From Deltaproteobacteria bacterium (GTDB lineage Bacteria; Myxococcota; Kuafuiibacteriia; Kuafuiibacteriales; Kuafuiibacteriaceae), in the NCBI GenBank assembly GCA_040218735.1, contig JAVJQW010000011.1, positions 64,001 to 128,000 on the forward strand: a DNA stretch of 64,000 nt. Reading direction: 5' to 3'. This document shows positions 1 to 19,041 of the stretch, piece after piece. Below the pieces are notes generated by a model. It was given only the letters and a program-made list of their open reading frames with translations. It had not been told where the DNA came from and did not search any database. The position numbers and the translations under genes are program-made. Within the stretch, counting starts at the first letter, position 1. Each line of letters begins with the position of its first letter.

Positions 1-171
1 TTGTTGCTGTCCGACCCCCAGCTCGCTCGCGTCACGGGCGCGTCCAACGCCGAGATCCGCTTCGCGCTGCAGCCCGCCGGCGGTCTCGGCCGCGGGGAGG
101 ACGCGCCGACGGTGCTGGTCGAGCGCTTCGAGGTCGTGGTGCAGTATCGACTACCGACGGAGAATCGATGA
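1..171 (+). CDS. 3' end of a gene truncated by the window edge; likely paralog of the downstream kelch-like lipoprotein
   Basis: Frame +1 is open from base 1 (LLLSDPQLARVTGASNAEIRFALQPAGGLGRGEDAPTVLVERFEVVVQYRLPTENR*). Its TGA overlaps the next ATG (ATGA), and it resembles the C-terminus of 168..4046 (...GLGAGPAGPRVNADHLTLVVTYRLP). Confidence 0.7.
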   Translation: MLLSDPQLARVTGASNAEIRFALQPAGGLGRGEDAPTVLVERFEVVVQYRLPTENR

Positions 172-4046: not shown

Positions 4047-5473
4047 GCGACGACGGCTGCGGACGCGCCGACCGACGACGTGAACACCGCGACGACCGCG
4101 TTCAGATCCACGATCTCGTGCGCACCGTTGCCGCTCTGGACGTCGGTCGTGGTCGCGGTCGTGACGTACTGAATCCCGCCGGTCGTCGTGCTCGTCGGCG
4201 CATAGTCGAGGACGCCGAGGGCGCCGTCCGAGATGCCGTTCATGTTCAGGCGGCGCACGACGACGTAGCCCGAACCATCGGTCGAGGCCGCGACGCCAAA
4301 CCCGAAGGGATGCGGCGCGCTATGACCGGCAGGGACGATCAGCGGCTCCGCAGTGCCCGCCTGCACGTCGATGCGCGCGGTGCACGTCGAGTTTCCGAAA
4401 GTCGACGCACACGAGTAGTACGCGGTGGACGGCGGGCTGAACGCGATATCACCGCCCAGCGACAGCCCCGAGATCATGTGCTCGAGCGCAAACGTCTGCC
4501 CGAGGTCGGTGCTCCGGTGGATCTCGAAGCGCAGCGGCGCGTCGATGAAGGCGATCAGGTCCCCGGTCGCCGGGTCGACGTGGATCGCGCCGCCCGCGGC
4601 GGTCGCGCTGGTGATCGACGCGAGCTCGAACGTCGTCTCTCCGAAGTCGGAGTTGCGCCAGACGCGGACCTCGGAACCCGCGCTGTCCTTCACCGCCAGG
4701 AAGACGTGGTTGCGCCACGACGCGATGTGCGGGCCGTAGTCGAGCAAGCCGCTCGCCACGGGGCCGGCGTCGACCACCCGGGGCGCCGACCACGTCGCGC
4801 CGCCGTCCGTCGACTTCGCGAACACCAGCGCGCCGCCCGTCGTGTTCGCCGCGGCGTACAGGACGTCGGGGGCGTGGGCGTGGATCGCGAAGCGCTCCAC
4901 GGTGGGGATCGCGATCGGCGTCGGGTCCGCGTAGCTCACGCCGAGGTCGGCGCTCCGCGCGACGTACGGCGCGCCGGCGCAGTCCATCGCGACGAAGATA
5001 CGGCCCGAGGGGTCGACCGTGACCTTGTCGATCTGCGCGGAGGGAATCGTACACCCCGGGCCGACGACCTGCTCGGGCACCGTAGCTGCGAGCGTCGGCG
5101 CCGGCGGTCCACACACACCCGAGAGGCAGACGTCTCCGCCCGCGCAAGCTGCGTTGCAAGCACCGCAGTGCCCATCGTCGGCGAACAGGTCGGCGCATAC
5201 GCCGTCGCAGTTCGTGAGCGGGTCCATACACATGCCGGCGTCACGCGGACCACCGTCGCGCGCGCCGCCGTCGCGCGGCGTCCCCGAGTCTGGCGTACCG
5301 CCGTCGGGTACGTCGACGCCGCCGTCGCGGAACCCGGCGTCCCGTACGACTTCGGTTCCGCTGTCGCGGGTCCCGCCGTCGCGCGGGTCGATCATCTCGT
5401 CGTCGTCATCACCGCCGCTGCAGCTCGCGAGCACCAGCGCAAACGTCAAACCCACTAGGCGTCGCACCATCAT
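4040..5473 (-). CDS. Lipoprotein with RDGG linker, myxobacterial Cys-rich module and BNR/Asp-box (sialidase-like) propeller
   Basis: Lipobox VLASC; repeated RDGG/PDGG; CxDLxxDxxHCGACxxxC motif; Asp-boxes SADLGVSY, STDGGATW, STDLGQTF. Start could be 5506. Confidence 0.7.
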   Translation of the reverse strand: MMVRRLVGLTFALVLASCSGGDDDDEMIDPRDGGTRDSGTEVVRDAGFRDGGVDVPDGGTPDSGTPRDGGARDGGPRDAGMCMDPLTNCDGVCADLFADDGHCGACNAACAGGDVCLSGVCGPPAPTLAATVPEQVVGPGCTIPSAQIDKVTVDPSGRIFVAMDCAGAPYVARSADLGVSYADPTPIAIPTVERFAIHAHAPDVLYAAANTTGGALVFAKSTDGGATWSAPRVVDAGPVASGLLDYGPHIASWRNHVFLAVKDSAGSEVRVWRNSDFGETTFELASITSATAAGGAIHVDPATGDLIAFIDAPLRFEIHRSTDLGQTFALEHMISGLSLGGDIAFSPPSTAYYSCASTFGNSTCTARIDVQAGTAEPLIVPAGHSAPHPFGFGVAASTDGSGYVVVRRLNMNGISDGALGVLDYAPTSTTTGGIQYVTTATTTDVQSGNGAHEIVDLNAVVAVFTSSVGASAAVVAY

Positions 5474-5725
5474 GAAGCGTCGAGGATACACAGATCTGGT
5501 TTTCATGGGCTCCCCTTCCGCAAGCCGCGTGCCGATTGCGGCGCGTCGCGAGTCGCCATCGTGTCACGACGGATCGCCACGTCACCGTGCCATGGTTCGA
5601 GACCCCACCGCGCGACCATCGCAGCCTGAGATTCACCCCGAGACGGATCGCGTCGGGTCGCGCGGCACGGGGCCGACATGAATTCGCACTACGCATCCCT
5701 AGCGTAAACGTCGAGGCTCCGGCTC

Positions 5726-5804: not shown

Positions 5805-5820
5805 TGGCACGACCGCTGCT
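5805..5820 (+). promoter_or_regulatory. Putative sigma54 (-24/-12) promoter of the export operon
   Basis: TGGCACGACCGCTGCT versus consensus TGGCACG-N4-TTGCW, with exact GG-N10-GC spacing; ends 17 nt before the ATG at 5838. Confidence 0.65.
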
Positions 5821-5837: not shown

Positions 5838-6794
5838 ATGCAGATCGTCGAGCTCCTCCTCGCTTACGCCGGACCCACGATCGTCGGCCTCGTCTTCGTC
5901 GTGACCGGCTTCCTCAAGCTCGCCGAGCCGATGCCGTTCGGGATGCACCTGCAGAAGCTCGAGCTCGTGCCGCCGAAGTACTTCGCGCGCGTCCTGACGT
6001 TCGCGATCGTCCAGGAGCTCGTGCTCGGCGTCGCGCTCCTCATCGGTTGCGCACCGATGCTCGTCATCCCCCTCGCCATCCTCACCATCGCGACCTTCAC
6101 GATCATCACCCTGCGCGCCGGCGCCGCCGGTCGCATCACCGACTGCGGCTGTTACCAAGGGCTGATCGAGCTGACCCCGAAGCAGAGCGCGCTCGTCAAC
6201 CTCGGCTACATGCTCGCCCTCGCCGCGGCCCTCCCCTTCCGCCTGCACCTCGGCCACTGGGTCACCGGCCTGATCGTCGCCGCCGCCGCCATCGCAGCAA
6301 CGCTCCTCGCGCGCGAGTCGCTGAAGCGCAGCGCACAGATGCGCGACCCCCTCATCGATCTCAACGGCGTCAAGGCCGGCAAACGCTTCGATCCTCGCTG
6401 GACCCCCGGCTGCCCCGTCGACCTCGGCGAAGGCGAACGCCTCGTCGTCTTCCTCGGCCTCGGCTGCTCCGCCTGCAAGCCATGGCTCCCCGTCCTGCGC
6501 GCGCTGAACGCGTCGAACCAGGGGATGCCGGTCATCGGCGTGCTCGCCGGCGACGCTTCGGCGGTCATCGCGTTCGTCGCCGAATACCAAGTGGACCTCC
6601 CGCTCGTCGTCATCCCGCACGGACGATTCAACCGCCTCGTCCGCGGCACGCCGATCGCGGCGCACCTCGTCGATGGACGCATCGAACACCGCTACGTCGG
6701 GGTCCTCCCTCGCGACGTCGCGCTGCGCGCGCGCAATCGTCCAAAGCCGAGCGTCTCAGTGGAATCCACTGAAGCGATCGGGGTCGCCGGATGA
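5838..6794 (+). CDS. MauE/DoxX-family membrane protein fused to a thioredoxin-like (MauD-like) domain
   Basis: About five hydrophobic helices with GxxK and DCGCY (MauE CGC motif); C-terminal GCSAC CxxC and RGTP cis-Pro loop. Confidence 0.8.
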   Translation: MQIVELLLAYAGPTIVGLVFVVTGFLKLAEPMPFGMHLQKLELVPPKYFARVLTFAIVQELVLGVALLIGCAPMLVIPLAILTIATFTIITLRAGAAGRITDCGCYQGLIELTPKQSALVNLGYMLALAAALPFRLHLGHWVTGLIVAAAAIAATLLARESLKRSAQMRDPLIDLNGVKAGKRFDPRWTPGCPVDLGEGERLVVFLGLGCSACKPWLPVLRALNASNQGMPVIGVLAGDASAVIAFVAEYQVDLPLVVIPHGRFNRLVRGTPIAAHLVDGRIEHRYVGVLPRDVALRARNRPKPSVSVESTEAIGVAG

Positions 6795-8323
6795 GGAACC
6801 GCTCCTTCGTCATCACGCTGGCGCTCCTGGCGCCGGCGAGCGCGAGCGCCGAGGGGACACTCCGCCTCGACGACGCGGTGCGCTCCGCGCTCACGGAGCA
6901 CCCCGATCTCCTCGCCGCGCAGCAGCGGGTCGAGGCGGCGCGGGGGCAGCTCTCCTCGGTGCGCGGCACCTTCGACGAATACCTGGACGCCAGTGTGGAC
7001 TACCAACGAACCGAGGAAGCGATCACGCAGGAGCAGCGTCCCTTCGTCGGCGCGGACAGCCTCACGTCCGACGTCTTCACCGCCCGCCTCGGGCTCTCGA
7101 AGACCTTCCGCTGGGGGATGCGCGTCAACCCGTCCGTCGCCGTAACGCGAAGCGAGCGCGACGTCGGTGCCAACGCCCCCGAGACCGACGCTCTCAACCG
7201 TGCGCAAGCTCGATTGCAGGTCACGCAACCCATCTTGCGCAACGTCGGCGCCTCGTCCGCCGTGCTCCAAGAGCGCACGTCCGAGATCGCGTTCGAGGCC
7301 GCCGAACGCGACCTCGAAGGCACCGCCCAACGGCTCACGCGCGACGTCGTGAATGCGTATTGGACCTACGCCGCATCCGTCCGCCGCCTGGCGCTCCTCG
7401 AGATCTCCGAAGCGCTCGCCAAGAAGACCGCCGAGGACACCCGCGCGCTGATCGCCGCCGACGAACGCCCCGCCGCGGACGCCCTCCAGCTCGAAGCCAC
7501 CGAAGCCGACCGGCGACGGCAACGCCTCCAGGCCGAGTCCTCGGTGTTCGCGGATCGCCGCCGCCTCGGCCTCGCGATGGGGCTCGACGACGCCCGCGCG
7601 ATGGCGCTCCCGCCCCCCGCGCGCTCGCTGCCGACCGCGCCCCTGCTGGCGGCGATCGCGCCGACGGAGCCCGAGCTCGCCGCCGCGGTCGAACGACGCC
7701 CGGACGTCATCGCGGCGCGGCTCCGACTCGCCGCCAACGGCCTCTCCGTCGACGCGGCCGACTGGAACACCCTCCCGGAGCTCGACGCGAGCTTCGGCGT
7801 CGGTTACAGCGGCCGCCTCGACCGCGACGCGCCGTCCGGGCTCTTCGGCGCGCTCACCGCGAACGTGGGTCCGTCCGTCGGCGGGGGCCTCACGCTGCGC
7901 CTCCCGGTGCGCAACGCCCAGCAACGCGGCGCCCTCCTCAACCAGCTCGCAGCGCGCCGGCAAGCCGAGTTGCAGCTCTTCGATCTCGAACGCAACGTCC
8001 GCGCGAACCTCGCGATCGCACACAACCAACTCCTGCGCGCGGCCGAAGCGGTGACCGCCGCGCAGCGCGCGCTCGAGCTCTTCGAGGGGGCGCTCGACGC
8101 CGAGACCGAAAAACTCGCGGCGCAGCTCGGGACCGTGCTCGACGTGGTGCTCTCGCAGGAGCGCCTGCTCAACGCGCAGATCTCTTCGGTCGACGCCCGC
8201 GCGCAGAACGCACGCGCGCACGTCGATCTCGAGTACCAACGCGGCGTCCTCCCCAACGGCGCCGAAGACCAAGACGCCCTCGCGCGGCTCCTCGCCGCGT
8301 TCGCCGAGGAGGCCACCCCATGA
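6791..8323 (+). CDS. TolC-family outer membrane efflux protein
   Basis: Signal peptide; LRLDDAVRSALxxHPDL start; two OEP-like repeats (RRPDV, LPELD, GTVLDV); ATGA overlaps on both sides. Confidence 0.9.
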   Translation: MRNRSFVITLALLAPASASAEGTLRLDDAVRSALTEHPDLLAAQQRVEAARGQLSSVRGTFDEYLDASVDYQRTEEAITQEQRPFVGADSLTSDVFTARLGLSKTFRWGMRVNPSVAVTRSERDVGANAPETDALNRAQARLQVTQPILRNVGASSAVLQERTSEIAFEAAERDLEGTAQRLTRDVVNAYWTYAASVRRLALLEISEALAKKTAEDTRALIAADERPAADALQLEATEADRRRQRLQAESSVFADRRRLGLAMGLDDARAMALPPPARSLPTAPLLAAIAPTEPELAAAVERRPDVIAARLRLAANGLSVDAADWNTLPELDASFGVGYSGRLDRDAPSGLFGALTANVGPSVGGGLTLRLPVRNAQQRGALLNQLAARRQAELQLFDLERNVRANLAIAHNQLLRAAEAVTAAQRALELFEGALDAETEKLAAQLGTVLDVVLSQERLLNAQISSVDARAQNARAHVDLEYQRGVLPNGAEDQDALARLLAAFAEEATP

Positions 8324-9585
8324 GCTCACCGTTCCGTGAAGCCGCGCTCGAACGCCTGTCGTCGCCGGAGCAGCTCGACAGCCTGATGCAGGTCACCACC
8401 GCCAAGGGTTGGATCGCGCTCCTGACCTCCGGCGTCCTGGTCGCCGGCTTGACGGTGTGGAGCGTCGTCGGGCGCCTCCCGACCAACATCACCGGCTCGG
8501 GGGTGCTCCTCTACCGCGGCGGCGTGACCGAAGTGACCGCGCTCGGCTCGGGGCAGGTCACGGCGCTGCACGTCGCCGAGAACGACGTCGTGAAGGTGGG
8601 TCAGACGATCGCCGAGGTCGCGCAGCCGGATCTCGTCGACCAGATCACCGACGCCGAGGCTGCCGTCGAGCAGGCCCGCGCGGACCTCGAGACGCTGCAG
8701 CGCTTCGGCACCGAGGACCAGCGGCTGCAGGCCGTCAGCCTCCGCGCGAACGAGCGCGACAAAGCCGCCGCCTTGACCTCCGCGCGCGACAAACTCGCCT
8801 ACCTCGAAGAGCGCCACGCTGCGCAGCTCAAGCTCCACGACCGGGGCCTCATCACCGGCTCCACGTTGCAGCAGACGAAACAATCGATCGACGGCGCCCA
8901 GGCCGAGATCGCGCAGCTCACCCAGAGCGTCCGCGAGCTCCGCCTGTCGACGCTGCGCAACGAGAAGCAGTCCGAGTCGGAGCTGAGGAACGCCGAGGTG
9001 CGCCTCGCGGAGGCCGAGCGAAGGGTCGAGACGCTGAAGGAGCGCCTCGCGACCAGCTCGAAGGTCGCCAGCCCCTACGCGGGCCGCGTCGTCGAGGTCC
9101 GCGCGCGGCGCGGCGCGCAGGTCAACACCGGGGGCCCGGTCATCGCGCTGGAGCTCACGAGCCCCGACGACGTCGAAGAACTGGAAGCCGTCGTGTACCT
9201 CCCCCTCGCGGAGGGCAAGCGCGTGCAACCTGGCATGCGCGTCCGAGTCTCGCCTGCGACGGTGAAGGAGGAAGAGTTCGGGATGATCCACGGCGAGGTC
9301 CGCGCCGTGGACGGGTTCGTCTCCAGCCGTCAGGGCATGGCGCGCCTTCTCGAGAACGAGGACCTCGTCTCCAGCCTGATGCAGAGCGCGGGGGGAACGG
9401 CGCTCGGCGTGCGCGTGACCCTCGACCGTGACGAAGCCGCGAAGAGCGGCTTTTCGTGGACCTCGGGCGAAGGCCCCCCGCTACAGGTCGAGAGCGGCAC
9501 GCCCTGCTCCGCCACGATCACCCTCGAGACCGAGCGCCCGATCGCCCAGCTACTGCCGTCCGTCGCGAGGTGGTTGGGGCCGTGA
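8320..9585 (+). CDS. NHLP bacteriocin-system secretion protein (HlyD-like membrane fusion protein)
   Basis: N-terminus FREAALERLSSPEQLD, one TM helix, coiled coil, SPYAGRV and C-terminal SGFSWTSGEGP...RPI. Real start is ATG 8320, not 6673. Confidence 0.9.
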   Translation: MSSPFREAALERLSSPEQLDSLMQVTTAKGWIALLTSGVLVAGLTVWSVVGRLPTNITGSGVLLYRGGVTEVTALGSGQVTALHVAENDVVKVGQTIAEVAQPDLVDQITDAEAAVEQARADLETLQRFGTEDQRLQAVSLRANERDKAAALTSARDKLAYLEERHAAQLKLHDRGLITGSTLQQTKQSIDGAQAEIAQLTQSVRELRLSTLRNEKQSESELRNAEVRLAEAERRVETLKERLATSSKVASPYAGRVVEVRARRGAQVNTGGPVIALELTSPDDVEELEAVVYLPLAEGKRVQPGMRVRVSPATVKEEEFGMIHGEVRAVDGFVSSRQGMARLLENEDLVSSLMQSAGGTALGVRVTLDRDEAAKSGFSWTSGEGPPLQVESGTPCSATITLETERPIAQLLPSVARWLGP

Positions 9586-11711
9586 AACGCAAGAAGGTCG
9601 AGACCGTCCTCCAGATGGAGGCCGTAGAGTGCGGCGCCGCGTCACTCGCGATGATCCTCGGCTACTACGGCGCGCACGTCCCGCTCGAAGAGCTCCGCTA
9701 CGAGTGCGGCGTGTCGCGCGACGGCACCAAGGCCGGCAACATCCTCCGCGCCGCGCGCACCTACGGCCTCACCGCGAAGGGCTTCAAGAAGGAGCCGTCG
9801 CAGCTCGCCGAGATGCCGCTCCCCGCGGTGCTGCACTGGAACTTTCAGCACTTCCTCGTGCTCGAAGGCATCGACGACGAAAAGGCGTGGCTCAACGATC
9901 CCGCGCTCGGTCAACGGACCGTCACCCTCGAACAGCTCGACGAGGCCTTCACGGGCGTCGTCCTCACCTTCGAACCCAACGACGCGTTCAAAAAGCGCGG
10001 CGCGCCGATGCGAGTGTGGCCGAAGCTCCTGGAACGCATCCAGGGTTCGAAGTCCGCGCTCGTCTTCGCCGTCGTCGCCGGGCTCCTCCTCGCGGTGCCG
10101 GGGATCGTGATCCCCCTCCTCGCGCGGATCTTCGTCGACGAGATCCTCGTGGGCGGAAAGACGAGCTGGCTCCTCCCGCTCCTCGCCTTCGCCGCGCTCC
10201 TCCTCGTCCTGCAGTCCGGGCTCGGCCGACTGCGCGCGAAGAACCTCCTCGACTTCCGCACCAAGCTCTCCGTCCTGGGCTCGGCGCGCTTCATCTGGCA
10301 CACGCTGCGGATCGAGCCGCGGTTCTTCGAAGCGCGCTTGCCGGGCGACGTCGCGATGCGCGCCGGCCTCGAGTCTTCGCTCGCGGGGACCCTCGCCGGG
10401 CAGCTCGCGAGCACCTTCATCGATCTGCTGCTCGTCGTCTTCTACCTGATCGTGATGCTGTCGTTCGACGTCCCGCTCACGCTCGCCGCCGTGACCGCCG
10501 CCGCGATCAACATCGTCGCGCTCCGGATGATCCAGTCCCACCGCGCGACCCTGAGCAACCGCGCGTCGCGCGCCGAGTCGAACCTCAACGGCGTGCAGTC
10601 GGCGGGGCTCATGCAGATCGAGACGCTCAAGTCGACGGGATCCGAGAGCCAGTTCTTCGAACGCTGGGCCGGGAACTACGCCCACGTCGTGAACACCAAG
10701 CAGGAGTCGACCGACAGCAACCTGCGCCTCGGCCTCGTGCCCGCGCTCCTCGGTGGGATCTCCACCGCGGTCATCCTCTGCTGGGGCGCGACCCGCGTGC
10801 TCGACGGCGCGATGACGATGGGGACGCTCGTCGCGTTCCAAGCGCTCACCGCCTCGTTCCTCGGCCCGGTCCAGCGCGTCCTCGGGCTGTGGTCGACGGT
10901 CCAGATGCTCCCCGGCAACCTGGTCCGCCTCGACGACGTCCTGAAACAACGCGTCGACGACCCGTTCGGCGAAGGCAACGATCGGACGCCGCTCGTCGGG
11001 CGCGTCGAGCTGGAGGGCGTGACGTTTGGCTACAGCCCGCGCGAGCCGCCGCTGCTCGACGACTTCTCGCTCACCGTCGAACCGGGGCAACGCGTCGCGC
11101 TCGTCGGGAGCTCCGGGAGCGGCAAGAGCACCATCGCGAAGCTCATCGCCGGCGTGTATCCGCCGTGGGCCGGCACGGTCCTCTTCGACGGGCGACCGCC
11201 GAACACGATCGACCGCCGCGCGTTCCTGGACGCGTTCAGCGTGGTGAACCAGGAGATCATCCTCTTCGAAGGCACTGTCCGCGAGAACCTCACGTTCTGG
11301 GACGACTCGATCCCGCAGGAGGACGTCGTGCGCGCGGCGAAGGACGCGTGCATCCACGAACACATCGTCGGCCTCCCGAACGGCTACGACACAAAGCTCG
11401 AAGAGGCCGGCCGGAACCTGAGCGGCGGGCAGCGGCAGCGCCTCGAGCTCGCGCGCGCGCTCGTCAAGAACCCGGCGCTCCTCGTGCTCGACGAAGCGAC
11501 GAGCGCGCTCGACTCGACGGTCGAGCAGCAGATCGATCGCAACCTGAGGCGCCGTGGGTGCACCTGCCTGATCGTCGCGCACCGCCTGAGCACCGTGCGC
11601 GACGCGGATCAGATCGTCGTCCTCGAACGCGGCAAGGTCGTGGAGCGCGGGACCCACGACGACCTGTACGCGTCCGACGGCACCTACAAACGACTGGTGG
11701 CGTCGGCATGA
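9582..11711 (+). CDS. NHLP-family ABC transporter with C39 peptidase, permease and ATPase domains
   Basis: LQMEAVECGAASL (catalytic Cys), CGVSRDG, HWNFQHF (His), NDPA; Walker A GSSGSGKS; LSGGQRQR; LDEATSALD. GTG start overlaps the upstream TGA. Confidence 0.93.
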   Translation: MKRKKVETVLQMEAVECGAASLAMILGYYGAHVPLEELRYECGVSRDGTKAGNILRAARTYGLTAKGFKKEPSQLAEMPLPAVLHWNFQHFLVLEGIDDEKAWLNDPALGQRTVTLEQLDEAFTGVVLTFEPNDAFKKRGAPMRVWPKLLERIQGSKSALVFAVVAGLLLAVPGIVIPLLARIFVDEILVGGKTSWLLPLLAFAALLLVLQSGLGRLRAKNLLDFRTKLSVLGSARFIWHTLRIEPRFFEARLPGDVAMRAGLESSLAGTLAGQLASTFIDLLLVVFYLIVMLSFDVPLTLAAVTAAAINIVALRMIQSHRATLSNRASRAESNLNGVQSAGLMQIETLKSTGSESQFFERWAGNYAHVVNTKQESTDSNLRLGLVPALLGGISTAVILCWGATRVLDGAMTMGTLVAFQALTASFLGPVQRVLGLWSTVQMLPGNLVRLDDVLKQRVDDPFGEGNDRTPLVGRVELEGVTFGYSPREPPLLDDFSLTVEPGQRVALVGSSGSGKSTIAKLIAGVYPPWAGTVLFDGRPPNTIDRRAFLDAFSVVNQEIILFEGTVRENLTFWDDSIPQEDVVRAAKDACIHEHIVGLPNGYDTKLEEAGRNLSGGQRQRLELARALVKNPALLVLDEATSALDSTVEQQIDRNLRRRGCTCLIVAHRLSTVRDADQIVVLERGKVVERGTHDDLYASDGTYKRLVASA

Positions 11712-14269
11712 CCAGCGCGACGTACGACAGCCGAACGACCCGCTCCATCGAGGGCAACGCCCCGCTGTGGCTCGTCGGCGACGGCGCGTGGCGGGTCGTC
11801 GGCGGCGAGGTCGATCTGTTCGTGGTGCAGCGGCGAGACGGCCGCGCCGTCGGGCGGCGCCGCTACCTCGGACAGATCGGCGCGAACGCCCTCCTCCTGG
11901 AGCTCGAGTGCGACGCCGAGCATCAGCTCCTCGCCGTCGGGGTGCTCGGCACGACGGTCGAGCGTGTCGAAGACCCGTCCCCGAGCGACCCCGCGCTCGG
12001 CCCCTGGCGCAAGATCTTCGGCGGCGAGGATCCCCGCGTCGCCGCCCAGACCTTCCTGGCCGACGAGGCCCCCCGCGAATTGAACGCCCGTGCGGCGATC
12101 CGCGATCGGGTGGAGGCCGGCGTCGAGCGCAACCGCGACCTCTTCGACGCCGCCCTGCGAGGCCTCGGCGATCTCCGCCTCCGCGGCGCCGCGAAGTGGT
12201 CGCCGCCCGACGAACCGTTGGCCTTCGCGATCGCCCACGTCGCGCGCGCCGAGGGCATGACGCCGCCCGCGAGCGCGTTCGAGGACCTCGGCGAAGGTGA
12301 CGCCAAGACGCGCCTCGAACGCTTCGGCCGCCGCGCTCGCGCGCGGAGCCGGCGCGTGTTGCTGCGCGGGGACTGGTTCAGAACCGACGCCGGCTCCCTC
12401 GTCGCGTTCGAGGACCGCGGCGTCGACAAGCCTTACCCCGTCGCGTTGGTCCGCACCGCGGCGGGTTACGTGCTGCACGCCGCACAGGAGGCGCCCGTCG
12501 CCGTCGACCGCGAGGTCTCGGACCGGCTGACCGGCGAGGCGTTCCAGCTCTACCCGGGCTTCGACAAGGACCGCATCACACCCGTCGATCTCGTTCGCTT
12601 CGCGATGCGCGGCCGACGCACCGACGCGATCGTGATGGCCGCGATCGGGATCGCGGGTGCGGTCGTGGGGTCCGCCGTCCCGCTCGCGACGAAGGAGATC
12701 TTCGGCACCGTCATTCCGAACGCCGCGCACTCGATGCTGTGGTTGGTGTTCGCGGCGCTCATCGGGCTCACCGTCGCGCAGGCGGTGTTCCAGCTGTCGA
12801 TGGGGCTCGCGCAGCTGCGGCTCGAGTCGCGCACCACCGCCGCGTCGCAGGCGGCGGTCCTGGATCGTGTGCTCAGCCTGCCGATGGGATTCTTCCGGCG
12901 GTTCGGCACGGGGGATCTGTCGCAGCGCGCGATGGGCATCGAACAGATCCGCTCGATGCTCTCGGGGACGGTCTTTGCGTCGTTGATGTCGTTTGTCTTC
13001 TCGCTGTCGAGCTTCGCGCTCTTGTTCTACTTCAGCCTCCAGCTCGCGCTCGCGGGGCTCGTGCTCGTCCTGATCGCCGGGGGCGTCGCGGTGTTCAGCG
13101 CGTGGATCGACGTGCGACTGATGCGGCGCATGGAGGAAGCGCGCGGCGCGACTTCGAACTACCTCCTCGAAAACCTCGCGGGGATCGCCAAGATCAAATC
13201 GGCGGGCGCCGAGGCCCACGTGTTCGCGGAGTGGTCGAAGCGCTTCGGGCGACAGTGGTCACTCACGTATCGCTCGACGGACATCCAGAACGACGTGCAG
13301 ACCTTCACCACCGCGTTCCCGCTGTTCTGTTCGATGGTGCTGTTCTTCATCGTCGGCAACTCGGGCGGCGACATCGGTACCGCCGACTACGTCGCGTTCT
13401 CCGCCGCGTTCACCGCGTTCAACGGGGCCGCGCTCGGCCTGATCAACGCCGGGCTGATGGCCCTCAGGATCGTCCCGCTCTACGAGCGCGCGCGGCCGAT
13501 CCTCGAGACAACGCCCGAGGTCCCGACCGAACGCCTCGCCGACGTGGACCTGAACGGGAAGATCGAGGTCAGCCACGTGAGCTTCGGCTACGACCCGGAG
13601 GCGCCGGTGCTCGAGGACGTCAGCTTCGAGGTCCCCGCCGGCCAGATGGTCGCGCTGGTCGGTCCCTCCGGCTCCGGGAAGTCGACGCTGGTGCGGCTCC
13701 TCCTCGGGTTCGAGACACCGACGTCCGGCGCGGTGTACTTCGACGACCAAGACCTGTCCGAGATGAACGCCGAGGCCGTGCGCCGGAACATGGGCGTCGT
13801 GACCCAGACCGGCGAGGTCCTCGGCGGAACGATCCTCGAGAACATCCGCGGCGGGACCGACGCGACGATGGAGCAGGTCTGGACCGCCGCGGAGCGCGCG
13901 GCGTTCGCCGACGAGATCCGCGCGATGCCGATGGGGATGCACACCGTCCTCCAGCCGCGCGGCGGGACACTCTCCGGCGGCCAGCGGCAGCGCCTGCGGA
14001 TCTCGCGGGCGCTGGTCGAAGAGCCGAAGATCCTCGTCCTCGACGAAGCGACGAGCGCGCTCGACAACCGGACGCAGGCGGTCGTCACGGACAGCCTGCA
14101 GGCGCTCGGCGTGACGCGGCTGGTGATCGCGCACCGGCTCAGCACGATCGAGCGCGCGGACCTGATCGTCTACCTCGAGGACGGGCGCGTGGTGGAGCGC
14201 GGCACGTTCGAGGAGCTCATGGCGCTCGACGGCGCCTTCGCGAAGCTGGCGCGCCGGCAGCAGGCGTGA
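11708..14269 (+). CDS. NHLP bacteriocin-system second ABC transporter (permease/ATPase, no peptidase)
   Basis: N-terminal WxVxxGEVDLF cNMP-like segment, RRVLLRGDWFRTDAGSLV motif, TM bundle, GPSGSGKS, LSGGQRQR. ATG 11708 overlaps the upstream TGA. Confidence 0.9.
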   Translation: MTSATYDSRTTRSIEGNAPLWLVGDGAWRVVGGEVDLFVVQRRDGRAVGRRRYLGQIGANALLLELECDAEHQLLAVGVLGTTVERVEDPSPSDPALGPWRKIFGGEDPRVAAQTFLADEAPRELNARAAIRDRVEAGVERNRDLFDAALRGLGDLRLRGAAKWSPPDEPLAFAIAHVARAEGMTPPASAFEDLGEGDAKTRLERFGRRARARSRRVLLRGDWFRTDAGSLVAFEDRGVDKPYPVALVRTAAGYVLHAAQEAPVAVDREVSDRLTGEAFQLYPGFDKDRITPVDLVRFAMRGRRTDAIVMAAIGIAGAVVGSAVPLATKEIFGTVIPNAAHSMLWLVFAALIGLTVAQAVFQLSMGLAQLRLESRTTAASQAAVLDRVLSLPMGFFRRFGTGDLSQRAMGIEQIRSMLSGTVFASLMSFVFSLSSFALLFYFSLQLALAGLVLVLIAGGVAVFSAWIDVRLMRRMEEARGATSNYLLENLAGIAKIKSAGAEAHVFAEWSKRFGRQWSLTYRSTDIQNDVQTFTTAFPLFCSMVLFFIVGNSGGDIGTADYVAFSAAFTAFNGAALGLINAGLMALRIVPLYERARPILETTPEVPTERLADVDLNGKIEVSHVSFGYDPEAPVLEDVSFEVPAGQMVALVGPSGSGKSTLVRLLLGFETPTSGAVYFDDQDLSEMNAEAVRRNMGVVTQTGEVLGGTILENIRGGTDATMEQVWTAAERAAFADEIRAMPMGMHTVLQPRGGTLSGGQRQRLRISRALVEEPKILVLDEATSALDNRTQAVVTDSLQALGVTRLVIAHRLSTIERADLIVYLEDGRVVERGTFEELMALDGAFAKLARRQQA

Positions 14270-14279
14270 GGAGGAACCG

Positions 14280-14777
14280 ATGCGACAGGCTTTGTACATC
14301 CTAGGGCAACTCACGGACGACGACGTGGAGTGGATGATCCAAAACGGTCGTCGCCACGCCGCGCGCACCGGCGACGTCCTGATCCGCGAGGGTGAGCCGG
14401 TGCGGTCGCTGTTCGTGCTGCTCGACGGCCTCGTCGCGATCGAGCGTGGCGGCAAGCGGATCAACACGTCGCAACCGGGTGAGTTCTTGGGAGAGCTGTC
14501 CTTCGTGGACTCGCGGCCGCCGAGCGCGACGGTCAAGGCGGCCCGCGACTCATCGCTCCTCGAATTGCCGCGTGACGTGCTGGTGCGCCACCTCGGTGAA
14601 GACCTCGGGTTCGCGAGCCGCTTCTACCGCGCGGTGGCGGTGTTCCTCGCCGACCGCGTGCGCGCGGAGATCGGCGGAGGTCACGATCCGGACGAGCTCG
14701 ATCCGGACGTGCTCGACGAGGTGAGTCGGGCGGGCGAGCGGTTCACGCGGATCCTTCAGAGGTTTCAGCGAGCGTGA
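14280..14777 (+). CDS. Cyclic nucleotide-binding domain protein of the bacteriocin-transport-associated type
   Basis: LYILGQLTDDDVEWM start, VLIREGE, GEFLGELSFVDSRPPSATVKA, GFASRFYRAVA, DELD. GAGGAG RBS upstream. Confidence 0.85.
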   Translation: MRQALYILGQLTDDDVEWMIQNGRRHAARTGDVLIREGEPVRSLFVLLDGLVAIERGGKRINTSQPGEFLGELSFVDSRPPSATVKAARDSSLLELPRDVLVRHLGEDLGFASRFYRAVAVFLADRVRAEIGGGHDPDELDPDVLDEVSRAGERFTRILQRFQRA

Positions 14778-14785
14778 GCGGTGAC

Positions 14786-14810
14786 GTGTCACAAGCGCGG
14801 GCGGTGACAC
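14786..14810. promoter_or_regulatory. Perfect inverted repeat GTGTCAC-N11-GTGACAC, putative activator site
   Basis: Read directly from the sequence; overlaps a GCGGTGAC direct repeat (14778 and 14801). Confidence 0.55.
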
Positions 14811-14838
14811 AGAGGACACGATCGAGGCGCGGCCGCGG

Positions 14839-14854
14839 TGGCCCGCTTGGTGCA
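14839..14854 (+). promoter_or_regulatory. Putative sigma54 (-24/-12) promoter of the precursor gene
   Basis: TGGCCCGCTTGGTGCA with GG-N10-GC spacing, 50 nt upstream of ATG 14905; GGAGGA upstream of the start. Confidence 0.55.
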
Positions 14855-14904
14855 TTTCGAAAACGTAGGCGCGACACGATAGGCGCGCGGAGGAATGAAG
14901 AGAG

Positions 14905-15585
14905 ATGAAGAGCATCACCATCAACGGAAAGACGTACTACCCGGGCGACGAGGTCGAAGTGGAGATCGATGGGCAAAAGCATCGACTCCCGTTCCCCAAG
15001 GACCCGGGCGTGTCCGAATCGGGCGAGCTCAGCGACGATGCGCTGGACGCCGTCACCGGGGGCGCCGGAAGCTACCCGGTGTGTCCCGGATCCGAGGGTA
15101 CCGGCGGCACGCCCATCTGTGACGTGGCTTCGCTGTACATCGGCGCCCTCTGCTTCGAGACGGGGTCGACGCTCCAATGTTTCTGCTCGAGGAGCAACGG
15201 CTACGCCATCGACTCGTACACGAACTGCCAGGGGCTCGGTCCGGACACCACGGTGTCCGACGCTCGCGTGAAGCAGGACGTCCAGCCCCTCGAAGGCGCG
15301 CTCGACACCCTCCTCGCGCTCCGCGGCGTCACGTTCGCCTACGACGCCGAAAAGGCGCCCGGCACGCGGCCCGGTGAGCACGTCGGGTTCGTCGCGCAGG
15401 AGGTCGAAGAGGTCCTCCCCACCTGGGTGCACGAGGCCGGAGGCATCAAGCGCCTGAAGGCCGAGGGGCTCTCCTTCGAAGCGCTCGCCGTCGAGGCGCT
15501 CCGGGAGCTGAAGAAGCAGAACGAACGCCTCGCCGAAGACAACGCCGAGCTGCGCAAGCGGCTGGATCGAATCGAGTCCGCCTGA
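14905..15585 (+). CDS. Tripartite precursor: double-glycine NHLP-like leader, 6-Cys core, Peptidase_S74 intramolecular chaperone/autocleavage domain
   Basis: Leader ends ELSDDALDAVTGG (aa 41-53); Cys at 60, 72, 83, 92, 94, 108; SDARVK (S118/K123), LRGVTFAY, GFVAQEVEEVLP and a terminal coiled coil. Confidence 0.85.
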   Translation: MKSITINGKTYYPGDEVEVEIDGQKHRLPFPKDPGVSESGELSDDALDAVTGGAGSYPVCPGSEGTGGTPICDVASLYIGALCFETGSTLQCFCSRSNGYAIDSYTNCQGLGPDTTVSDARVKQDVQPLEGALDTLLALRGVTFAYDAEKAPGTRPGEHVGFVAQEVEEVLPTWVHEAGGIKRLKAEGLSFEALAVEALRELKKQNERLAEDNAELRKRLDRIESA

Positions 15586-15619: not shown

Positions 15620-17686
15620 ATGTCGGACGTCGACCTCGCGCGCGTGCTCAACGAACGGTTCGGGCTCTCATCGTTCCGCCCCGGGCAGGAAGAAGCCATC
15701 CGCGCGCTCCTCGCCGACGGGCGCCTCCTCTGCATCCAGCCCACTGGCCACGGCAAGTCCCTGCTCTACCAGCTCCCGGCGACGCTCCTGCCGGGCATCA
15801 CGCTCGTCATCTCGCCGCTGCTCGCGCTCGTGCGCGATCAGGTGCAGCAGCTCGGCGAGCGCTTCTCGATCCACGCCGTCGCGATCAACTCCGACCAGGA
15901 GGACGACGAAAACGAGGCCGCGATGCGCGACGCCGCGAGCGGCGCTGCGAAGATCCTGTTCGTGTCCCCGGAGCGCCTCGACAACGTGGAGGCGTGGCAG
16001 TTCCTCCTGAGCCTCGCGGTCGACCTCGTCGTCGTCGACGAAGCGCACTGCATCTCGACGTGGGGGCACGACTTCCGCCCGTCGTACCGGCGCATCGTCG
16101 ACGCGGTGCAGAGCCTCTCCGGGCAGCGCGAAGGTGTGCGCGTCCTCGGCCTCACTGCGACGGCGTCGGCGCGCACCGAAGCGGACATCGCGCGGCAGCT
16201 CGCGCCGGATGCGGATCACCCGCTCACCGTGATGCGGGCGTCGATGGACCGCGCGAACCTCTCCCTCGCGACCCGGAGCGTGTCCGGCCCGGCGGAGAAG
16301 CTCGGCTGGCTCGACGCGTTCCTCGCGGACGCGGAGGGCACCGGCATCCTCTACTGCGCGACGCGCGATCAGACGGAGGTCGTCGCGGCGTTCCTCTCCG
16401 CGCGCGGGCACGACGTCGTCGCCTACCACGCGGGGCTCGCGCCCGAGGACAAGCGTCGGCTGCAGCAAGCGTTCACGCGCGGGGACCACAAGGCGATCGC
16501 CGCGACGAATGCGTTGGGGATGGGGATCGACAAGGCGGACCTGCGCTTCATCGTTCACGTCGACGTCCCGGGCTCGATCACCGCGTACTACCAGGAGGTC
16601 GGCCGCGCGGGACGCGACGGGGAGCCGGCCCGTGGCGTGCTGCTCTTCGACCCCGCCGACCGACGCATCCAGGCGCACTTCATCCGCTCCGCGCAGCCGA
16701 CCGCCGAGGACTTCGACCAAGTGCTCTCGGTGCTGCGTCCGGGGGGCGACGATGAGTGGCCGAACCTCACTCAGGTGAAGATGCGCTCCGGCCTCCACCC
16801 GACGCGCGTCACTGTCGTGCTCGCCGAGCTGCGCGAGCAGGGCCGCGTCGAGAAGGTCCTCGACCGCCGTCGCCAGGTCTACCGAACGATCGAGGGCGAC
16901 CACCCGCCGCTGGATCTGACGCGTTATATTCGACAGAACGAGGTCCGGACGAACGAGCTCGAGGCGATGATGCGCTACGCCGCGGCCGAGGTGCCGTGCG
17001 CGATGCAGGCGCTCCGCGTCGCGCTCGGTGACGACGGCGCCGAACGTTGCGGGCGCTGCGATCGGTGCGCACCCGATGCGTGGTCACTCCCGGCGCCGGG
17101 CGTTGGCGCCGAGGTCGCGGGGCGCTGGCTCTCGGATCGCGTCGTCCCGATCCCCGCGATGCGGACGAACAAGGTGTCCGAGGGCGTCGCGCTGATGACG
17201 AGCGAGGAGCGCAGCCCGCCGTTCCTGCACTTCATGAAGGCGCGCACGAACGCCACGTCGCTCGACGCGGTCGTGCTCGAGAACCTCGATGCACGCGCGG
17301 CCGAGCTCGCCGAGCTACATCGGTTCTCCGCGGTGGTCGCGGTGCCCTCTCGGACGTGGGCGCAGCGGACGGCCACCGGCGAGCGGCTCGCCGCGGCCGT
17401 CGGCGCGACGTTCGTCGAGGCCCTGCGTTGGCGCGAGCCGCCCGAGGCTCGCCAGGGCGAGCTGCTCAACAACGACCAGCGACGCGACAACGTGAAGGGC
17501 CGCCTCGACGCGGCGCTCGACGACGACGGCGGCGCGGTGCTCCTCGTCGACGACTACACCGGGAGCGGGTCGACCCTCGCGGAGGCCGCGCGTGCGCTCC
17601 GCAAGGATGCGGGTTGGTCCGGGGCGATCGTCCCGTTTGTCATCGCGAAGGTGCGCTGGCGGCTCGGCGCCCGCGGGATCGTCTGA
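15620..17686 (+). CDS. RecQ-family ATP-dependent DNA helicase with C-terminal PRTase-like domain
   Basis: PTGHGKS, DEAHCISTWGHDFRP, TATA, YYQEVGRAGRDG, Zn site CGRCDRC; C-terminal VLLVDDYTGSGSTL. Confidence 0.9.
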   Translation: MSDVDLARVLNERFGLSSFRPGQEEAIRALLADGRLLCIQPTGHGKSLLYQLPATLLPGITLVISPLLALVRDQVQQLGERFSIHAVAINSDQEDDENEAAMRDAASGAAKILFVSPERLDNVEAWQFLLSLAVDLVVVDEAHCISTWGHDFRPSYRRIVDAVQSLSGQREGVRVLGLTATASARTEADIARQLAPDADHPLTVMRASMDRANLSLATRSVSGPAEKLGWLDAFLADAEGTGILYCATRDQTEVVAAFLSARGHDVVAYHAGLAPEDKRRLQQAFTRGDHKAIAATNALGMGIDKADLRFIVHVDVPGSITAYYQEVGRAGRDGEPARGVLLFDPADRRIQAHFIRSAQPTAEDFDQVLSVLRPGGDDEWPNLTQVKMRSGLHPTRVTVVLAELREQGRVEKVLDRRRQVYRTIEGDHPPLDLTRYIRQNEVRTNELEAMMRYAAAEVPCAMQALRVALGDDGAERCGRCDRCAPDAWSLPAPGVGAEVAGRWLSDRVVPIPAMRTNKVSEGVALMTSEERSPPFLHFMKARTNATSLDAVVLENLDARAAELAELHRFSAVVAVPSRTWAQRTATGERLAAAVGATFVEALRWREPPEARQGELLNNDQRRDNVKGRLDAALDDDGGAVLLVDDYTGSGSTLAEAARALRKDAGWSGAIVPFVIAKVRWRLGARGIV

Positions 17687-17718
17687 CGGCGCGTCTTGGC
17701 GTACGCTCGGAGCAACGG

Positions 17719-19041
17719 ATGTCACGCGACGACAAGACCGTGAAGAAGAAGTCGCTGGCGCGCCCGAAGCCGCGCCGCCGCGTCGTGCGCATCGTCTTCG
17801 CGCCCGATCCCGCGGCCCGCGGCCGGGTGGTCGAGCTCGACGGGCGCGAGAAGACCTTCGGCCGCGCCGCCGAAGGGGATGGCCTCGTCGAGGACGACAC
17901 GATGTCGCGGCAACACTTCGCGCTCAGGCCCGAGGCCGGCGCGCAGTACCGCATCGAGGACCTCGGGACCTCGAACGGCACCTTCGTCGACGGGCGTCAG
18001 CTCGGCGGCCCTGCGCCCGTCGAACCGCAGCAGGTGGTCGCCGCGGGGGAGACGCTGTTCACGATCGACGTCGAGCCGAAGAAGGACACCCTCCCCGCCA
18101 CGGACGTCGACGCGGATGCCGTGACCGAGGTCGTCGGTGTGTCCCTCGCGACCGAGCGCTTGCGCCGATCGCTCGCGACCGTCGCGCGCGCGCCCGGCGC
18201 CGTGCTGCTCCTCGGCGCGACGGGGGCCGGCAAGGAGGTTGCCGCGAACGCTATCCACCGACTGAGCGAGCGCCCCGGCGCCCTGGTCGCGGTGAACTGC
18301 GCCGCGATCCCAAAGGACATGGCCGAAGCCGAGCTGTTCGGCCACGTACGCGGCGCGTACACCGGCGCCGAGACGGACCGCGCCGGCTACATCGAACGCG
18401 CCGACGGCGGCACGCTGTTCCTCGACGAAATCGGCGACCTCCCGGAGGCGCTGCAAGCCAAGTTGCTCCGCGTCCTCGAGACGGGTGAAGTCGCGCGCCT
18501 CGGTGCGGAGGGGATGAAGAAGGTCGACGTCCGCTTCATCGGCGCGACGCACAAGGACCTCGAAGGCGGCGCGTTCCGCAAGGACCTCTTCGCGCGCCTG
18601 TCGGACTGGGTGCTCCGCCTCCCGCCGCTGAAGGACCGCAAGGCCGACGTCCTCCCGCTGTTCGATCACTTCCTCGGCGACGCCGAGTCCTACGGACCGG
18701 AGGTCGCCGAGGCGCTCCTCCTCCACGACTGGCCGATGAACGTGCGCGAGCTGCGCAAACTCGCGCAGCGGCTCCGCACCCTCGCGGACTCCGGCGTCGT
18801 CGCGCTCGACGATCTCCCATCGACGCTCACGGAGCGCCTCGCGCATCGGTTCGAAGAGGAGGTCGAGGACCCGGACGACCCCAACATCGCCGCGCCCCCG
18901 CGCGAGGAGCTCGAGGCCGCGCTGCGCGCCTGCAAGGGCAACGTGAAGGACACCGCCACCGCGAACGGCTGGCACCGGACACAGCTCTACCGCTGGCTCA
19001 AGCGACGCGCGATCGATCCGAAAGCCTTCCGGGATGGCTGA
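17719..19041 (+). CDS. FHA-domain sigma54-dependent enhancer-binding protein
   Basis: FHA motifs GR, SRQH, SNGT; GATGAGKE; ELFGHVRGAYTGA (GAFTGA variant); LFLDEIG; WPMNVREL; C-terminal HTH. Start at ATG 17719. Confidence 0.9.
   Translation: MSRDDKTVKKKSLARPKPRRRVVRIVFAPDPAARGRVVELDGREKTFGRAAEGDGLVEDDTMSRQHFALRPEAGAQYRIEDLGTSNGTFVDGRQLGGPAPVEPQQVVAAGETLFTIDVEPKKDTLPATDVDADAVTEVVGVSLATERLRRSLATVARAPGAVLLLGATGAGKEVAANAIHRLSERPGALVAVNCAAIPKDMAEAELFGHVRGAYTGAETDRAGYIERADGGTLFLDEIGDLPEALQAKLLRVLETGEVARLGAEGMKKVDVRFIGATHKDLEGGAFRKDLFARLSDWVLRLPPLKDRKADVLPLFDHFLGDAESYGPEVAEALLLHDWPMNVRELRKLAQRLRTLADSGVVALDDLPSTLTERLAHRFEEEVEDPDDPNIAAPPREELEAALRACKGNVKDTATANGWHRTQLYRWLKRRAIDPKAFRDG

Follow-up and report, generated by a model that had tools for sequence, protein, structure and literature searches.

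A candidate microcin-like precursor joining a double-glycine leader to a Peptidase_S74 chaperone domain beside an NHLP-type exporter in Kuafuiibacteriaceae

What is encoded by a gene that places a leader of the bacteriocin type at one end of a short cysteine-rich segment and a phage-type self-cleaving chaperone at the other? The question is raised by an open reading frame (ORF) at positions 14905-15585 of the forward strand in a 64,000-nucleotide stretch of a Deltaproteobacteria bacterium genome (Myxococcota, Kuafuiibacteriaceae; assembly GCA_040218735.1, contig JAVJQW010000011.1, positions 64,001 to 128,000), the whole of which is referred to here as the window. An initial annotation, made from the letters of the DNA alone, had proposed that its product, here called P0001, is a bacteriocin-style precursor whose core is excised at both ends by two different mechanisms. 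The analysis described here supports that interpretation, in which the cleavages, the export and the disulfides stand as inference. All the computational checks suggested with the proposal were made, and no outcome that had been named as refuting it came up. The sequence evidence is best explained if the product is what the NHLP-type type I exporter encoded next to it, a peptidase-containing ABC transporter (PCAT), carries out of the cell; this cargo would be an unmodified, secreted mini-protein resembling the class II microcins, trimmed at both ends. We assign a probability of roughly 0.6 to this reading, in which an exported microcin-like precursor is cut after a double glycine (GG) by the C39 peptidase domain of the PCAT and between V117 and S118 by its own S74 domain.

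The ORF is confirmed as a real gene of three parts, namely a leader, a core with six cysteines, and an S74 or intramolecular chaperone (ICA) domain with a coiled coil. Its ATG at 14905 is the earliest start past an in-frame stop and is preceded by GGAGGA 11 nt upstream, and the third-position G+C content of 0.81-0.88 in this frame, within a window of 70% G+C, indicates that it is coding. Translation gives a protein of 226 amino acids (aa) and reproduces what the initial annotation had read from the DNA, including the end of the leader at 15063, the core at 15064-15255, the Ser codon at 15256, the spacing of the cysteines and the motifs SDARVK (starting at S118, 15256), LRGVTFAY and GFVAQEVEEVLP; the stop codon occupies 15583-15585. 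The parts of the gene are as follows, with structural descriptions taken from an AlphaFold2 (AF2) model.

14905..15063, + strand: leader, aa 1-53, predicted to comprise a small beta domain (aa 1-30), a linker and an amphipathic helix ending in GG
15064..15255, + strand: variable core, aa 54-117, with 6 Cys, 6.5 kDa, pI 4.05, rich in Gly, Ser and Thr
15256..15429, + strand: Peptidase_S74 / intramolecular chaperone domain, aa 118-175, with S118 and K123 (Pfam)
15430..15585, + strand: C-terminal coiled-coil helix of the ICA domain, aa 176-226, and stop codon (predicted helix 190-225, with contacts in the trimer model)

The follower domain is of the kind that the initial annotation had named. Pfam PF13884 (Peptidase_S74) matches aa 118-175 over profile positions 1-57 of 58 with E 6.8e-17 and 62 bits (cut-off 22), S118 sitting on profile position 1, and the profile also scores above its cut-off in the relatives P0002, P0003 and P0062 introduced below. 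The S118-x4-K123 dyad is present in all members of this family, and of the residues that are invariant (5) or near-invariant (23) across 58 aligned S74 proteins P0001 lacks none, S118, D119, R121 and K123 being among them; its SDARVK aligns with SDRRIK of 6f45. The AF2 monomer model, built from a 58-row alignment, has a predicted local distance difference test (pLDDT) score of 88-98 in the S74 and coiled-coil parts (95-98 in helix 190-225), and structural comparison with Foldseek ranks the ICA domain of MyRF first (7dc3; E 7e-6, probability 1.0), with the phage chaperones 3gud and 3gw6 next. When three copies of aa 54-226 were modelled together the ipSAE score was 0.93, against 0.00 for the best control, a mark that 20 of 30 solved pairs attained but just 1 of 23 single chains; the trimer runs agreed in at least 62% of contacts, with partner pLDDT of at least 68. 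Passages of a study of MyRF (PMC8326128) report that MyRF cannot do without S587 and K592, the counterparts of S911 and K916 in endoNF, and that the cut falls N-terminal to the Ser and in the trimer only. According to the same passages, cleavage of endoNF also needs a residue of the upstream triple beta-helix, and a MyRF ICA fragment is cleaved in the expression host, so that the domain folds and cuts autonomously in the cytoplasm (PMC8326128).

At the other end of the protein, the 53-aa leader terminates in LSDDALDAVTGG / ELSDDALDAVTGG and carries hydrophobic residues at -4, -7 and -12 (V50, L47 and L42) before G52-G53; the GG and these three hydrophobic positions are kept in all four full-length members of the family. 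According to passages of PMC10885120, the C39 domains of PCATs read a leader helix that is amphipathic and hydrophobic at -4, -7 and -12, and cut after the GG, a rule to which the leader of P0001 conforms, as do those of all four members. The AF2 model places strands at residues 4-6, 9-11, 16-21 and 24-29 (pLDDT 80-90) and a helix at 44-51. Residues 2-19 resemble Pfam DUF7210 below threshold in three of the four members (E 0.0004-0.006; cut-off 27 bits), and comparison of the leader fold with the structures of the Atlas returned nothing above match thresholds. Taken alone the GG motif is weak evidence for an export leader; a loose regular expression for it matches six times across the six frames of the window. 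The likeness of the preceding HRLPFPKDP to the tails of NHLP leaders, which the initial annotation had pointed out, was not confirmed. Neither the NHLP (TIGR03793) nor the Nif11 (TIGR03798) leader model of NCBIfam, nor that of any other leader family, matches P0001 at E <= 1, and NHLP or Nif11 membership is therefore rejected; scans of the organism's own genome with both models reached other loci only, all of them below cut-off.

Proteins sharing the whole design are very few. Of 2428 candidates from a word-indexed search, 60 proteins reached E <= 0.001; P0002 (63% identity) and P0003 (67%) alone covered the full query, the other 57 matching the S74 half only. An exhaustive phmmer search with aa 1-117 against 1,835,955,588 representative proteins returned P0003, P0062 and P0061 only, and P0061 was discarded as a spurious repeat protein. 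P0062, which comes from a Planctomycetota metagenome-assembled genome (MAG) and bears the NCBI name 'tail fiber domain-containing protein', has a related N-terminal beta segment, then ...ELTDEQLEAVSGG, a 54-aa core with six cysteines, SDRRLK and the S74 domain; with its aa 1-126 as query, it was itself the only match among 28 candidates. Three of 61 related genomes searched had a match: the organism's own, a genome of the same genus (G001, with two matches) and G042, whose marginal match (E 0.0099) is not counted as a family member. G001 encodes P0002 in the equivalent position, and its second copy is split over contig ends, with the leader MTTITINGKTYGPGDQVEVEVNG... at L009 1476-1581 and the end of the core plus the S74 domain at L017 2-409, the core end before the S74 domain being different. 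The family thus comprises four full-length members (P0001, P0002, P0003 and P0062) and one split copy. No paralogue of leader plus core was found in the organism's own genome, and no relative was confirmed among 597 pattern matches in JGI metagenome contigs or 287 in IMG/VR viral contigs.

Comparison of these members sets the core apart from what surrounds it. All four cores contain exactly six cysteines, spaced C-x11-C-x10-C-x8-C-x-C-x13-C in P0001, and the S74 part contains none in any of the four. Since four cysteine columns (C72, C83, C92 and C108) are invariant and the other two cysteines shift together, both being N-terminal in some cores, whereas elsewhere one is N-terminal and its partner is the second Cys of CxC, the core would have two disulfides that are fixed and a third that varies. 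In P0001 the fixed pair would lie among C72, C83, C92 and C108, and the variable bond would join C60 to C94. The three close members share 74-79% identity in the leader, 31-36% in the core (with many gaps), 78-90% in the S74 domain and 69-78% in the C-terminal helix; the corresponding values to P0062 are 47-55%, 25-29%, 59-62% and 49-53%. Between P0001 and P0002 the rate of nonsynonymous substitution (dN) is 0.68 in the core and 0.15-0.16 elsewhere. The core therefore diverges far more than its flanks (31-36% against 74-90%), as expected of the hypervariable core foreseen in the initial annotation, and its rapid divergence suggests a role in target recognition, for example as a bacteriocin or a signal. 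It has no match in Pfam, NCBIfam, PHROG, PDB or the Atlas.

The precursor gene closes an operon-like row, with six genes of the same strand upstream of it whose stops and starts mostly overlap.

5838..6794, + strand: MauE/DoxX-like membrane protein, opening the row (Pfam MauE, E 3.3e-15; BT_3928 family below cut-off)
6791..8323, + strand: outer-membrane efflux protein of the TolC family (Pfam OEP, E 4.6e-34; TIGR01844 below cut-off)
about 8323..9585, start not fixed, + strand: HlyD-type adaptor of an NHLP bacteriocin system (TIGR03794, 314 bits against 156)
about 9582..11711, + strand: C39 peptidase-ABC exporter (PCAT, ABC1; TIGR03796, 990 bits against 853; Pfam Peptidase_C39, E 2.3e-37)
11708..14269, + strand: second ABC subunit without peptidase (ABC2; TIGR03797, 764 bits against 709), its ATG overlapping the stop of ABC1
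14280..14777, + strand: accessory protein with a cyclic-nucleotide-binding domain (Pfam cNMP_binding, E 2.2e-17)

With TIGR03794, TIGR03796 and TIGR03797 all above their NCBIfam cut-offs, the neighbouring pump is an NHLP-type C39 exporter. ABC1 has candidate GTG starts at 9456, 9570 and 9582, and its C39 domain carries the motifs ECGAAS, HFLVLEG and NDP, which we take to hold the catalytic Cys, His and Asp, respectively. The cyclic-nucleotide-binding protein scores 122 bits against TIGR03896 ('bacteriocin-type transport-associated protein'), below the cut-off of 161. The stop of the MauE-like gene overlaps the start of the TolC-family gene, and a role for its product in disulfide formation is a matter of conjecture. 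Because the genome has a single TIGR03796 protein above cut-off, while nothing in it reaches the cut-off of the NHLP or Nif11 leader models, P0001 is the only recognisable candidate cargo.

The pairing of precursor and exporter recurs. The exporter lies directly upstream in all three loci with readable upstream DNA, which are the window, the P0002 locus of G001 (L007) and the Planctomycetota contig (L011). In L007 the end of ABC2 is followed by the cyclic-nucleotide-binding protein and the P0002 gene; in L011 an HlyD-type adaptor (TIGR03794, 309 bits), ABC1 (TIGR03796, 1018 bits) and ABC2 (TIGR03797, 884 bits) are followed by the P0062 gene. The co-occurrence with NHLP transporters on which the initial annotation had staked its proposal is thus found again, once in another genome of the genus and once in a MAG of another phylum. 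S74 domains as such are widespread: of 401 genomes sampled in the phylum, 103 have them. As controls, 20 small ORFs (143-389 aa) were taken from 150 S74 matches listed, and an S74 ORF was detected by hidden Markov model in 13 of the 20 loci, one of these being the split family member. A double-glycine leader was found in none of the 12 non-family S74 ORFs (a single loose match lies in a hydrophobic N-terminus), and no C39-ABC was found in any of the 20 loci within about 6 kb on either side, or less at contig ends. The 54 S74 proteins nearest to P0001 gave five loose GG matches, all in signal peptides or Gly-rich repeats.

Maturation may accordingly be pictured as a series of steps, of which the first, synthesis of the 226-aa precursor, starts from an observed gene whose expression is merely hinted at. 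The C39 domain of ABC1 would recognise the leader helix and cut after G52-G53 during export through ABC1/ABC2, HlyD and TolC, as the leader motif and the conserved synteny suggest. The remaining 173 aa would leave the cell unfolded, since the TolC conduit excludes folded trimers. Outside the cell the S74/ICA domains would trimerise via the predicted coiled coil and so gather three cores while their six cysteines oxidise. Conservation of the dyad and the precedents of MyRF and endoNF suggest that S118 and K123 would then make a trimer-dependent cut between V117 and S118, upon which the chaperone would depart. The product released would be a 64-aa anionic core with three disulfides, possibly as a trimer.

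Other readings place the same parts in a different order or give them different roles. The main rival, which we consider unlikely, has the S74 domain trimerise and cut itself in the cytoplasm, after which a leader-core of 117 aa would be exported as an unfolded monomer and fold alone outside; the S74 part would then serve in the cytoplasm as a holdase, shield the C-terminus or guard against self-toxicity, and would not be an assembly template. It draws support from the self-cleavage of ICA domains in the cytoplasm of an expression host, reported for the MyRF fragment in the passages of PMC8326128, from a trimer model without confident contacts between cores, and from the typically small size of PCAT cargos. 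On this account, however, three intertwined chains must be disassembled before export, the N-terminal leader emerges first and can reach the pump before the C-terminus folds, and six cysteines that are unable to oxidise in the cytoplasm would leave nothing lasting to template. Two further readings are weaker. If P0001 were a true precursor of a peptide that is ribosomally synthesised and then modified after translation (a RiPP), its structured leader would recruit a tailoring enzyme to modify the core before export. The beta domain of the leader is confidently predicted by AF2 and recalls structured NHLP and Nif11 leaders that are reported to bind tailoring enzymes (PMC12537861; bioRxiv 10.64898/2026.10.04.756588), and exporters of the NHLP type mostly serve RiPPs; yet the leader is hit by neither of the two models, NHLP or Nif11. 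Moreover, no known tailoring family is found among the scanned neighbours in the window or L011, though an unfamiliar enzyme may be encoded there; the window offers only the MauE-like membrane protein, which the scanned genes of L011 lack, and a modified product seems very unlikely.

In the other reading, also very unlikely, the gene is a stub left from a fibre gene, bacterial or phage, and only happens to stand next to an exporter, its GG unused. This would agree with the NCBI label of P0062, with the identity of all 30 PHROG matches as tail-fibre or related virion families, and with the commonness of S74 fibre proteins in the phylum (103 of 401 genomes). Those PHROG matches, however, span only about aa 86-224, mostly 114-220, and never the leader or most of the core, and the leader is conserved as strongly as the S74 part. 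The neighbours are cellular, with no phage-like genes in the Pfam and NCBIfam scans made of them, and the viral contigs of IMG/VR hold no relative. The synteny with the exporter extends across two phyla, and the control ORFs show neither the leader (0 of 12) nor a C39-ABC within about 6 kb (0 of 20).

Several points also weigh against export and double trimming themselves. What the sequences show is the gene, its motifs, the synteny and the S74 fold; the cleavages of the precursor, its export, its disulfides and any activity of the core are all inferred. The trimer proposed in the initial annotation is modelled with confidence for the S74 part (residues 114-224) and not for the core, which makes no confident contacts before residue 114; a trimeric core is thus unsupported by the model, and the favourable score may itself be owed to the likeness of P0001 to solved ICA trimers. 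In the monomer model the pLDDT of the core is below 50, leaving its fold without model support as well. Autocleavage could fail because P0001 has no upstream triple beta-helix like that of endoNF, from which, in the passages cited above, a residue is needed. The linkage count of three is small, with five members known, and omits the P0003 locus, and no exporter lies within the 1.4 kb readable upstream of the second G001 copy. No immunity gene was recognised beside the precursor. The core dN/dS of 0.39, obtained with saturated synonymous divergence (dS), reflects quicker change and does not demonstrate positive selection. One biofloc metatranscriptome contains 151-nt contigs that fall on the intergenic region and the leader portion of the gene, over 14705-14856 and 14887-15037 (about 98% alike, depth about 2), a weak hint of expression that could be DNA carry-over and cannot show transcription, strand or ends.

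Beyond export and double trimming, a more specific role for the chaperone can be put forward tentatively, as a possibility somewhat worse than even. The phage-derived, self-excising trimerisation domain would act as a traceless follower that, after export, locks three hypervariable Cys-rich cores into a disulfide-bonded trimeric knob. Such a knob would be in effect a free-standing receptor-binding tip. With it, an ICA domain would for the first time be put to use beyond virion fibres and MYRF, and a bacteriocin-like product would for the first time have its quaternary structure templated by the precursor from which it comes.

Comparison with established systems shows which features are shared and which are particular to this family. 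Class II microcins are unmodified, anionic, Gly/Ser-rich and disulfide-bearing products of about 60-90 aa, made with leaders of about 15-20 aa. The core of P0001 fits them in size and composition (64 aa, pI 4.05, six Cys), and the C39-ABC, HlyD-type adaptor and TolC protein of their export systems are likewise encoded alongside it. A double-glycine leader with hydrophobic -4, -7 and -12 positions, as in colicin V and other double-glycine bacteriocins, is also shared, going by the passages of PMC10885120. In contrast, leaders of this family are 53-72 aa long with a predicted folded beta domain, P0001 adds a putatively self-cleaving C-terminal domain of 109 aa, the row includes two ABC subunits and a cyclic-nucleotide-binding accessory with no immunity gene recognised, and the hosts are a large genome of 70% G+C and a Planctomycetota MAG instead of Enterobacterales. 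With NHLP/Nif11 systems (TIGR03793/TIGR03798 with TIGR03794, TIGR03796 and TIGR03797) the locus shares an exporter cassette of the same family, above cut-off, as well as a long conserved leader ending in GG and a variable core; it differs in a leader that lies off both models, in having no known tailoring enzyme among the neighbours scanned, and in the S74 follower.

P0001 likewise has the profile and fold matches, the S-x4-K dyad, the coiled coil and the predicted trimer of the ICA/Peptidase_S74 domains of phage endosialidases, tail fibres and MYRF. Its cargo, however, is a 64-aa Cys-rich segment and not a triple beta-helix, a fibre or a transcription factor, and it possesses an N-terminal export leader and an exporter operon with no virion module. 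Unlike in a phage tail fibre, no fibre or beta-helix stalk was matched before the S74 domain, the PHROG matches being confined to the C-terminal half. The closest S74 domains (40-57% identity over the domain) are those of secreted bacterial 'tail fiber domain-containing' or collagen-like proteins, which are cellular and not viral. These often have Sec signal peptides and carry long GIGT or collagen-like stalks with no GG leader, unlike P0001.

Other S74 genes noticed during the analysis have arrangements of their own. The only other one in the organism's genome (C56; locus L034, 6617-12469, - strand), an example of the secreted bacterial proteins just described, encodes a 473-aa protein with a Sec signal, a collagen-like repeat and an S74 domain, and weakly matches the N-domain of a Bdellovibrio 'mosaic adhesive trimer'. 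After it come a 104-aa ORF, which ends in ...ELSPEELEAVGGG with a 15-aa tail behind it, and next a second full-length C39-ABC exporter; this adjacency is not seen at the G001 orthologue, and the two were rejected as a linked pair. Three loci of the same phylum (L022, L029 and L030, family f9) have a dense Cys-rich region before the S74 domain (15-16 Cys per 80 aa, ending in CAPLCA immediately before SD) behind Gly-rich linkers. This combination of Cys-rich cargo and S74 is a different design, with no double-glycine leader and no C39-ABC nearby, the loose GG match in L030 being a hydrophobic N-terminus. In the ORFs of L015 and L016 a signal peptide is followed directly by the S74 domain, apparently with no cargo.

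Around the row lie a Kelch-repeat protein of more than 1300 aa (3-4046, + strand), beyond the exporter genes upstream, and a flanking protein of 488 aa (4040-5506, - strand) that has BNR repeats and a Cys-rich segment of the Stig1 type. Downstream of the precursor gene come a RecQ helicase and a sigma-54 activator (17047-19041), the latter two genes away from it. A weak sigma-54-like -24/-12 element, TGGCCCGCTTGGTGCA, occurs at 14839-14854 (+ strand) with two mismatches, about 50 nt upstream of the precursor start, and a like element is present in the same place in G001 at L007 1427-1442, both fitting TGGC.CG....GTGCA. A sigma-54 promoter was nevertheless rejected, as the scan with the consensus gave five window matches against 6.0 expected and was not above chance. 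Further sigma-54-like matches lie at 5805-5820, before the MauE-like gene, and at 5519-5534, before the minus-strand gene at 5506.

Near-identical DNA is present, among the runs listed, in 21 runs from 11 studies, including metagenomes of aquaculture, biofloc, sponge, seawater and biofilm. In five of the listed runs half or more of the sampled words occur, and one of these five is possibly the origin of the window DNA. The complete precursor gene is also found on two long contigs of other samples, with 10-20 differences over 1.3-1.4 kb, and in such near-identical strains the changes are not concentrated in the core.

Export by double-glycine leader and PCAT, and chaperoning by S74 domains, are each well known; their fusion around a short variable core appears to be undescribed and very rare. 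No such design was found described in the literature on S74/ICA domains together with double-glycine leaders, bacteriocins, RiPPs or PCATs, a search that did not cover subscription journals and supplements, and in full texts S74 or PF13884 met bacteriocin, RiPP or PCAT terms in phage papers only. The belief of the initial annotation that no described class has this architecture is in keeping with that result. With only five copies in very large sequence collections, the rarity of the family limits its ecological weight. If the mechanism holds, bacteria would have borrowed a fibre-assembly device of phages for a small secreted protein, adding a second, enzyme-free processing step to maturation of the bacteriocin type, and the combination of export leader, cargo and self-removing trimeriser would constitute a compact natural cassette with which designed mini-proteins might be secreted and trimerised.

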